14,936 bases of DNA, taken from assembly GCF_003334765.1 (NCBI RefSeq), contig NZ_QOWT01000054.1; one strand, given 5' to 3'. Made by a program: the position numbers and the translations under genes. The notes under the pieces are model-generated. The model saw nothing but the letters and a program-made list of their open reading frames with translations, was not told the origin of the DNA and searched no databases. Source of the stretch: Escherichia coli. GTDB lineage: Bacteria; Pseudomonadota; Gammaproteobacteria; Enterobacterales; Enterobacteriaceae. This document shows positions 1-813 of this stretch, piece by piece. How positions within the stretch are numbered: position 1 is the stretch's first letter; each line of letters begins with the position of its first letter.

Positions 1-484
1 CTTCCATATTTCGTAAAACCAGATGAAATAATATATCATAAAGTGCGCAATGCCATGAATAACCATCATTGGTTAAAATAAGCTCCCAAACCCGCTCCTG
101 CTCAGCAATAAGCTGCAGAACAAAGGATTCAACCTGTTCTGATTGTCCGGGGACAACCCGGTATAGCGGCGCAATCACAGCAAAAAACAGTTCATTTAGC
201 CAGGATTCCGCTTCCTTCTCGCTCCTGAAAGATGGACAGTTCTGTATTCTTCGTTCGTATTCACGGGTAACCTGCTCCGGAATATCCTCCGGCGGTGTCA
301 ACCACTTATTCCTGAGCAATATACTGGTTGACGGATGGCAGCAGGCTATTTCAGCAATAATTTCACGTAATGCCTCCGGGCTGAACTTCTTCAGCTGATT
401 GTAGTGCTCCCGGGTAAAACCGTGATCATCGCATAAAAGTTGCCATGTCATTGATATACTGTTTGCCATTCCTTTCTTCATCAT
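1..484 (-). CDS. Hypothetical protein, N-terminal part only; the gene runs off the left edge of the window
   Basis: Hand translation of the minus strand from ATG at 482-484 (in-frame stop immediately upstream at 485-487; further in-frame ATGs at 479-481 and 467-469) stays open to position 2: MMKKGMANSISMTWQLLCDDHGFTREHYNQLKKF...YDILFHLVLRNME. It is absent from the supplied ORF track, presumably because it has no stop inside the window. No family recognised. Confidence 0.4.
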   Translation of the reverse strand, partial: MMKKGMANSISMTWQLLCDDHGFTREHYNQLKKFSPEALREIIAEIACCHPSTSILLRNKWLTPPEDIPEQVTREYERRIQNCPSFRSEKEAESWLNELFFAVIAPLYRVVPGQSEQVESFVLQLIAEQERVWELILTNDGYSWHCALYDILFHLVLRNME

Positions 485-504
485 TAATACCTGTTACATG
501 AATA

Positions 505-813
505 TCAACAGACCGGTGTACCTTTTCTGAATACCTCCCCGGACGGACTGGCAATCCCCATTCTCCTCAGCGTGGCATCTGCAGCTTTCGCCACTTCGCT
601 GATATCCAGCTTTTCAGGTAGCGGCGGGGACGATATCTGCGCCAGGCAATAATTCCTGCGCAACAACAACCACTCCCGTTGTGCTTCTGTACATTCAACA
701 TTTCCCATAACAAAAAGCCAGCGGGCAGAAGCTCTGCGCCAGCAACCAGCAGCCTCCAGTTTTTGCGCAACCATGTCTTCCACGACTTCCGGGGGACTCT
801 TTTTCCTGCTCAA
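505..813 (-). CDS. Hypothetical protein downstream of ibrB-like gene; start uncertain
   Basis: ORF-track ORF of 102 aa. The codon at 811-813 is TTG, not ATG; the first in-frame ATG is at 772-774 (MVAQKLEAAG...). No strong Shine-Dalgarno seen and no family recognised. Same strand and orientation as ibrB/ibrA upstream of it. Confidence 0.25.
   Translation of the reverse strand: MSRKKSPPEVVEDMVAQKLEAAGCWRRASARWLFVMGNVECTEAQREWLLLRRNYCLAQISSPPLPEKLDISEVAKAADATLRRMGIASPSGEVFRKGTPVC

Follow-up and report, generated by a model that had tools for sequence, protein, structure and literature searches.

A pchD-type PerC-family gene and a short SpnT/DUF6880-like gene at the end of an ibrAB cluster in Escherichia coli

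The group-1 relatives of PchD act on H-NS-silenced promoters to activate ler. PchA, PchB, PchC and EPEC PerC are all ler activators, whereas PchD leaves ler unaffected and hardly influences curli or biofilm (PMC5931665, PMC6265319). PchD is without an established target or phenotype in the literature (PMC6265319, PMC5931665) and is the one Pch protein to which no function has been assigned; it was tested alone, the pch ORFs having been cloned only with their own ribosome-binding sites (PMC6265319). Expression of pchD is induced on lettuce (PMC6891304). In the S-loop 72/OI-43,48 region the consecutive genes are ECs1386, ECs1387, ECs1388 (pchD), ECs1389 and ECs1390, and cah is ECs1396 (PMC1890555).

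Two further systems bear on the locus described here. The first is SpnT, encoded by the transposon TnTIR of Serratia marcescens. Its overexpression leads to elongated cells and nucleoids and to less pigment and sliding motility (PMC11064533, citing Wei et al., 2006; Horng et al., 2002). The second is IbrAB, the immunoglobulin-binding regulator pair, which is YbdN/YbdM-like. Sandt and colleagues (2002) reportedly found that cloned ibrA and ibrB alone activated eib expression.

The window analysed in this work is a stretch of E. coli DNA of 14,936 nucleotides, of which positions 1-2800 are 100% identical to the chromosomes of strains 042 and 55989, neither of which is known to be a LEE strain. 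The initial annotation had described two ORFs that are co-oriented with an ibrAB-like pair and may share its island, with one of them truncated by the window edge. This layout is borne out by the comparison. Both ORFs lie on the minus strand directly after ibrB and ibrA (Table 1), and the complete CDS of the truncated ORF is annotated in the identical 042 and 55989 sequences as a hypothetical protein of 214 residues (WP_001387055.1), with the first 161 codons inside the window and 161 bases beyond it. The other ORF is entered in RefSeq for the same genomes as an 89-residue transcriptional regulator of the PerC family (WP_000226517.1; window positions 505-774). The genes are closely packed: ibrA and ibrB overlap by 16 nt, the gap from ibrB to the PerC ORF is 39-78 nt and that from the PerC ORF to the 214-residue gene is 20 nt (in 042). 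With presence defined as at least 80% coverage in a set of 5426 complete E. coli genomes, the block formed by window positions 1-2800 (ibrA, ibrB, the PerC ORF and the 5' part of the 214-residue gene) was found in 975. Both ORFs belong to the same horizontally acquired segment as ibrAB.

Table 1. Genes of the ibrAB cluster in window coordinates.
Feature	Position	Strand	Basis
ibrA (PAPS-reductase-like + DUF3440), first gene of the cluster	1482..2714	-	RefSeq annotation; phrog_2302, phrog_15645
ibrB (ParB-like, IbrB-like domain)	853..1497	-	RefSeq annotation; phrog_2159 E=8.6e-85
pchD-type PerC-family small regulator	505..813	-	Pfam PF06069; phrog_994 E=2.7e-16; 96% amino-acid identity to O157 ORF
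214-aa gene, 5' part	ATG at 484 down to window edge	-	161 uninterrupted codons

The two ORFs close a co-directional cluster, ibrA-ibrB-pchD-(214-residue gene), in a mosaic island of 042 and 55989. This island is located between two T6SS clusters, with T6SS gene remnants and IS debris at its borders. Consensus scans for promoters and intrinsic terminators gave no signal above chance inside the cluster, and an Rfam scan of the window gave no match. The G+C content differs between the modules, with values of approximately 0.35 for the Kiwa genes upstream of ibrA, 0.52 for ibrAB and pchD and 0.44 for the 214-residue gene; the difference between the last two values suggests a separate origin for the 214-residue gene.

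The 102-residue ORF matches the Pfam PerC model over its full length (PF06069; 123 bits, E = 6e-36, residues 11-100 on positions 2-89 of the 90-position model), and the view that neither ORF belongs to a nameable family has to be given up for this one. Near cah in O157:H7 the genes for a PAPS reductase, an IbrB-like protein, a PerC protein and a 214-residue hypothetical protein follow each other in the same order, and the O157 PerC ORF, which lies between the IbrB-like gene and the 214-residue gene, is identical to that of the window at 96% of amino-acid positions over 102 codons. Judged by this synteny and by the identity to the O157 ORF at the ECs1388 position, the 102-residue ORF is the orthologue of the published pchD, the sole group-2 PerC homologue of EHEC. 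The Pfam score, together with pairwise dN/dS values of 0.16-0.23, shows that it is not a chance ORF. The setting differs from that of O157:H7 in two respects. The host here is of enteroaggregative or commensal type rather than O157, and the island is flanked by T6SS genes and carries Kiwa, whereas pchD of O157 lies in OI-43/48 next to cah. A match of the ORF to the ANR family was discarded as insignificant (E = 0.046; 13.6 bits, where the cut-off is 32).

Three start codons come into question for the PerC ORF: a TTG at 813, a GTG as codon 11 and an ATG at 774 (codon 14 of 102), the last being the choice of RefSeq. The methionine encoded by the last of these in 042 is replaced by lysine in strain C5 and by valine in strain F5656C1, and both the Pfam model (from residue 11) and the Yokenella homologue (from about residue 10) align upstream of it. 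Because codon 14 is not conserved and the alignments begin near residue 10, the true start is probably upstream of the RefSeq ATG, at either the TTG or the GTG.

The 214-residue protein is more remote from described families. It gave no significant match in NCBIfam, PHROGs, PADLOC or Pfam, including the Pfam DUF6880 HMM (PF21810), and a profile search of PDB sequences returned an insignificant best value of E = 0.08. Among 1.8 billion representative proteins, a profile search picked out only 38 matches. These comprise several short proteins (about 195-200 residues) with 28-44% identity and the N-terminal part of proteins of about 460 residues that Pfam assigns weakly to DUF6880; one of these relatives (P0065, 464 residues) itself matches the DUF6880 model only weakly. 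The DUF6880 proteins of 459-464 residues were recovered at E = 2.5e-8 to 4e-6. Profile-profile alignment with hhalign against a DUF6880 alignment gave a probability of 99% (E = 2.5e-18) over 185 columns, covering positions 5-192 of 463, and a tblastn search found 25% identity to a Shewanella DUF6880 protein.

A model of the 214-residue protein was predicted with AlphaFold2 using a diverse alignment. The model is compact and reasonably confident (pLDDT of 81, pTM of 0.75) and has twelve helices; an earlier model from a shallow alignment of E. coli sequences only was poor (pLDDT of 63) and was set aside. The nearest folds found by Foldseek in AFDB50 are SpnT-named proteins of E. coli ED1a, Klebsiella and Enterobacter (E = 2e-4 to 1e-3). 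The predicted fold is a HEAT-like alpha-solenoid without likeness to any enzyme or pore-forming fold, and a helical repeat of this kind is typical of protein-binding scaffolds. The profile-profile and fold comparisons agree in relating the 214-residue protein, as a stable form of half the length, to the N-terminal part of SpnT/DUF6880. The two share a homologous N-terminal region of about 190 residues, an all-helical repeat architecture and an occurrence on mobile elements. They differ in that the 214-residue protein has less than half the length of the full-length proteins of about 460 residues and lacks their C-terminal half, and in that its gene is paired with a PerC gene; of the full-length DUF6880 genes examined, some stand alone and others have R-M systems or a RecX-like gene as neighbours. 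The 102-residue ORF is a named gene, and the 214-residue protein is a new short member of a known, uncharacterised superfamily.

The half-length form raises the question of whether the ORF is a non-functional, truncated spnT/DUF6880 leftover carried beside pchD. Coverage of only the N-terminal ~190 positions of a ~460-residue family, the lack of a significant match to curated family models and dN/dS values that reach 0.49 in some comparisons would all fit such a remnant. The gene is, however, present in 1062 of the 5426 genomes and full length in 1038 of them, the length of 214 residues is kept in more than 1000 genomes and RefSeq annotates an intact CDS. Pairwise dN/dS values (0.07-0.49) are below 1 in every pair compared, which points to purifying selection. 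Independent short homologues of about 194-206 residues occur in Yokenella, in Pantoea (Enterobacterales) and in metagenomes, indicating that the short form is a stable family rather than a recent truncation. The model, moreover, is that of a compact, confidently predicted domain, and the gene is transcribed and regulated (PMC7649339). A decaying remnant is therefore highly improbable, and less likely than the reading in which the gene works with pchD. The full-length conservation, the dN/dS values and the Enterobacterales homologues likewise show that it is not a chance ORF.

In the searches made here the family of the 214-residue protein is rare outside E. coli. A word-index search with the protein recovered only Escherichia relatives, down to 53% identity, and the same search seeded with the Yokenella homologue recovered only that sequence. 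A scan of one genome per species yielded just two loci, one in Pantoea and one on an E. coli contig that contaminates a MAG. Neither tblastn against phage genomes nor a pattern scan of viral contigs detected a homologue in phages.

The neighbourhoods of the more distant relatives are varied. The homologues in Pantoea sp. BAV 3049 and in one metagenome-derived genome are located a few kilobases from a T6SS ImpA_N/VasL gene and beside site-specific recombinase genes, the same kind of T6SS neighbourhood as in the E. coli island. In three loci a full-length DUF6880/SpnT gene has an R-M system of type I or type III beside it. On the Shewanella baltica plasmid pSBAL11703 (6989-8688) a small RecX-like gene comes after the DUF6880 gene and overlaps it, and in another enterobacterial lineage the DUF6880 gene has inserted on its own between hflC and purA. 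The name 'ZorC EH domain' attached in UniRef to one DUF6880 protein is unsupported by PADLOC.

The pchD-type ORF is present in 1050 genomes and the 214-residue gene in 1038 (at least 80% coverage), and the two are contiguous in 1034 of the roughly 1040-1050 that have at least one of them, although these counts are inflated by clonal inheritance in heavily sampled lineages such as O157:H7. In the C5 and F5656C1 alleles the PerC stop and the start of the 214-residue gene overlap. In Yokenella regensburgei a homologue of the 214-residue protein (P0041, 44% identical) directly precedes a PerC gene (58% identical) with an overlap of 4 nt, in the reverse order to that in E. coli. A PerC neighbour was absent by tblastn from the loci examined of the distant homologues (Pantoea, metagenomes) and of full-length DUF6880 genes, so that the lineages that independently support the pairing are in essence two, E. 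coli and Yokenella. The pairing is near-obligate in E. coli and is limited to the E. coli and Yokenella clade. Adherence of STEC to epithelial cells is accompanied by joint upregulation of ibrB, perC and the hypothetical gene that follows, all three with consecutive locus tags (PMC7649339).

The linkage to ibrAB is looser. ibrAB is present at the same coverage in 2031 genomes, about half of which lack both ORFs. In the common class of ibrAB adjacent to cobU (~89% identity), homology to the window breaks off precisely at the stop codon of ibrB, beyond which lies a gene for a TonB-dependent receptor. Plasmid A of strain M9 and strain NS-NP030 retain no more than a stub of the PerC 5' end behind ibrB, and in an ST38 strain ibrA-ibrB-PerC is followed directly by cas3, without the 214-residue gene. 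In strains C5 and F5656C1, on the other hand, ibrAB is reduced to fragments beside an intact PerC and 214-residue gene, and on the Yokenella contig there is no ibrAB less than 8 kb from the pair. As shown by the ibrAB loci without the pair and by the pair intact beside ibrAB remnants, ibrAB and the pchD/214-residue pair are separable modules that often travel together.

These distributions bear on the earlier suggestion that the ORFs are accessory partners of ibrAB, that is, components of the same pathway as IbrA and IbrB which, for example, target or regulate the system. In its favour, all four genes share strand and cluster, the four-gene block is contiguous in 975 genomes, PerC remnants lie directly after ibrB in M9 and NS-NP030, the ST38 strain has the ibrAB-PerC arrangement, and the co-upregulation extends from ibrB to both ORFs. 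Against it, IbrAB is alone in about half of its genomes, with the cobU class breaking off at the end of ibrB, and the pair survives beside decayed ibrAB and in Yokenella without it. The reported activation of eib by cloned ibrA and ibrB alone also speaks against it. The tighter link is that between the two ORFs themselves, and we regard a role in the IbrAB pathway as unlikely and as less likely than the two-protein cassette proposed below.

The reading that we prefer, with a probability of about one half, is that the pair forms the last two genes of the ibrAB cluster, is separable from ibrAB and encodes PchD and a solenoid partner as a two-protein regulatory cassette. Where ibrAB is present, pchD and the 214-residue gene would be co-transcribed with it. 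PchD would be the component that modulates transcription, and the solenoid would be its protein-binding partner, acting as a co-factor, stabiliser or antagonist, such that the two proteins would work together. Counting against this reading are the ST38 strain with PerC but no 214-residue gene, the lower G+C content of that gene, the lack of a PerC neighbour at the more distant loci examined and the lack of an established target of PchD. A stronger form, which we consider unlikely, is that PchD and the short SpnT-like solenoid are an obligate two-protein unit, and that PchD has looked inert from having been cloned without its partner; together they might regulate island or host genes or act as a mutually neutralising growth-control module in defence islands.

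These results are chiefly of value for annotation: one ORF is pchD, the other is a short gene of SpnT/DUF6880 type, and the cluster of four genes is made up of two separable modules. The finding is otherwise ordinary and largely already annotated, and its wider interest is limited to the hypothesis that PchD requires the 214-residue protein. The near 1:1 linkage of pchD with a gene for a predicted protein-binding solenoid suggests such a partner and, if true, could give a function to both PchD and the SpnT/DUF6880 family.

The genomic setting invites a different view of the pair, as a toxin-antitoxin-like or defence-associated module in which one protein inhibits growth and the other neutralises it. 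Such a role would account for the location of the pair in a defence island. A Kiwa anti-phage pair lies directly upstream of ibrA (window 2755-4148, minus strand), with KwaB (276 residues; PADLOC E = 2.4e-12) and KwaA (186 residues; E = 3e-10) both labelled as hypothetical by RefSeq. The neighbours in other strains include AAA-type ATPases, ATP-dependent nucleases, a set of TerB-N, ATP-binding protein and helicase genes, a type I R-M system and CRISPR-Cas. Under stronger induction cloned pchD restricted growth (PMC5931665), and PMC11064533 adds to the elongated cells and nucleoids caused by SpnT that disruption of spnT was impossible in Serratia (citing Wei et al., 2006; Horng et al., 2002). 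Toxicity on overexpression is, however, an unspecific signal, and the same paper describes spnT as deletable in E. coli strain 4972. Further, neither ORF matches any PADLOC model, whereas the neighbouring KwaA and KwaB do, and the predicted fold of the 214-residue protein and its absence from the phage genomes and viral contigs searched also speak against a module of this kind. We therefore judge it very unlikely, and less likely than the regulatory cassette.

The slot between ibrA and the T6SS remnants (VasL, POTRA and ImpA_N; window 4400-5400 and the corresponding loci) carries different cargo in different strains. It is occupied by Kiwa in 042, by an AAA protein and a hypothetical protein in O157, by a 645-bp hypothetical gene in 28Eco12 and, in both C5 and F5656C1, by AAA ATPases with ATP-dependent nucleases; C5 carries the remnant set as a tandem repeat. 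This slot looks like a recombination hotspot for defence genes. At the other end of the cluster, the 214-residue gene is followed in 042, 55989 and 28Eco12 by a 107-residue hypothetical ORF that is rich in Lys and Pro (11451-11774 of locus L001, past the left edge of the window). This ORF gave no significant match in any family library, and other genes replace it in O157 and C5.

At the 5' end of ibrA, the homology of most of the ibrAB copies compared (O157, 28Eco12, the cobU type and NS-NP030) stops at 2672-2673, approximately 14 codons inside the annotated gene (window 2672-2714). Possible explanations are an annotated ibrA start that lies too far upstream and a variable N-terminus. IbrA also matches the PADLOC models for BrxP (E = 2.4e-7) and DndC weakly (E = 2.6e-4 for the latter). 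In combination with IbrB, which is ParB-like, it resembles the DNA-modification modules of defence systems, a likeness that could bear on the effects of ibrAB on gene expression.
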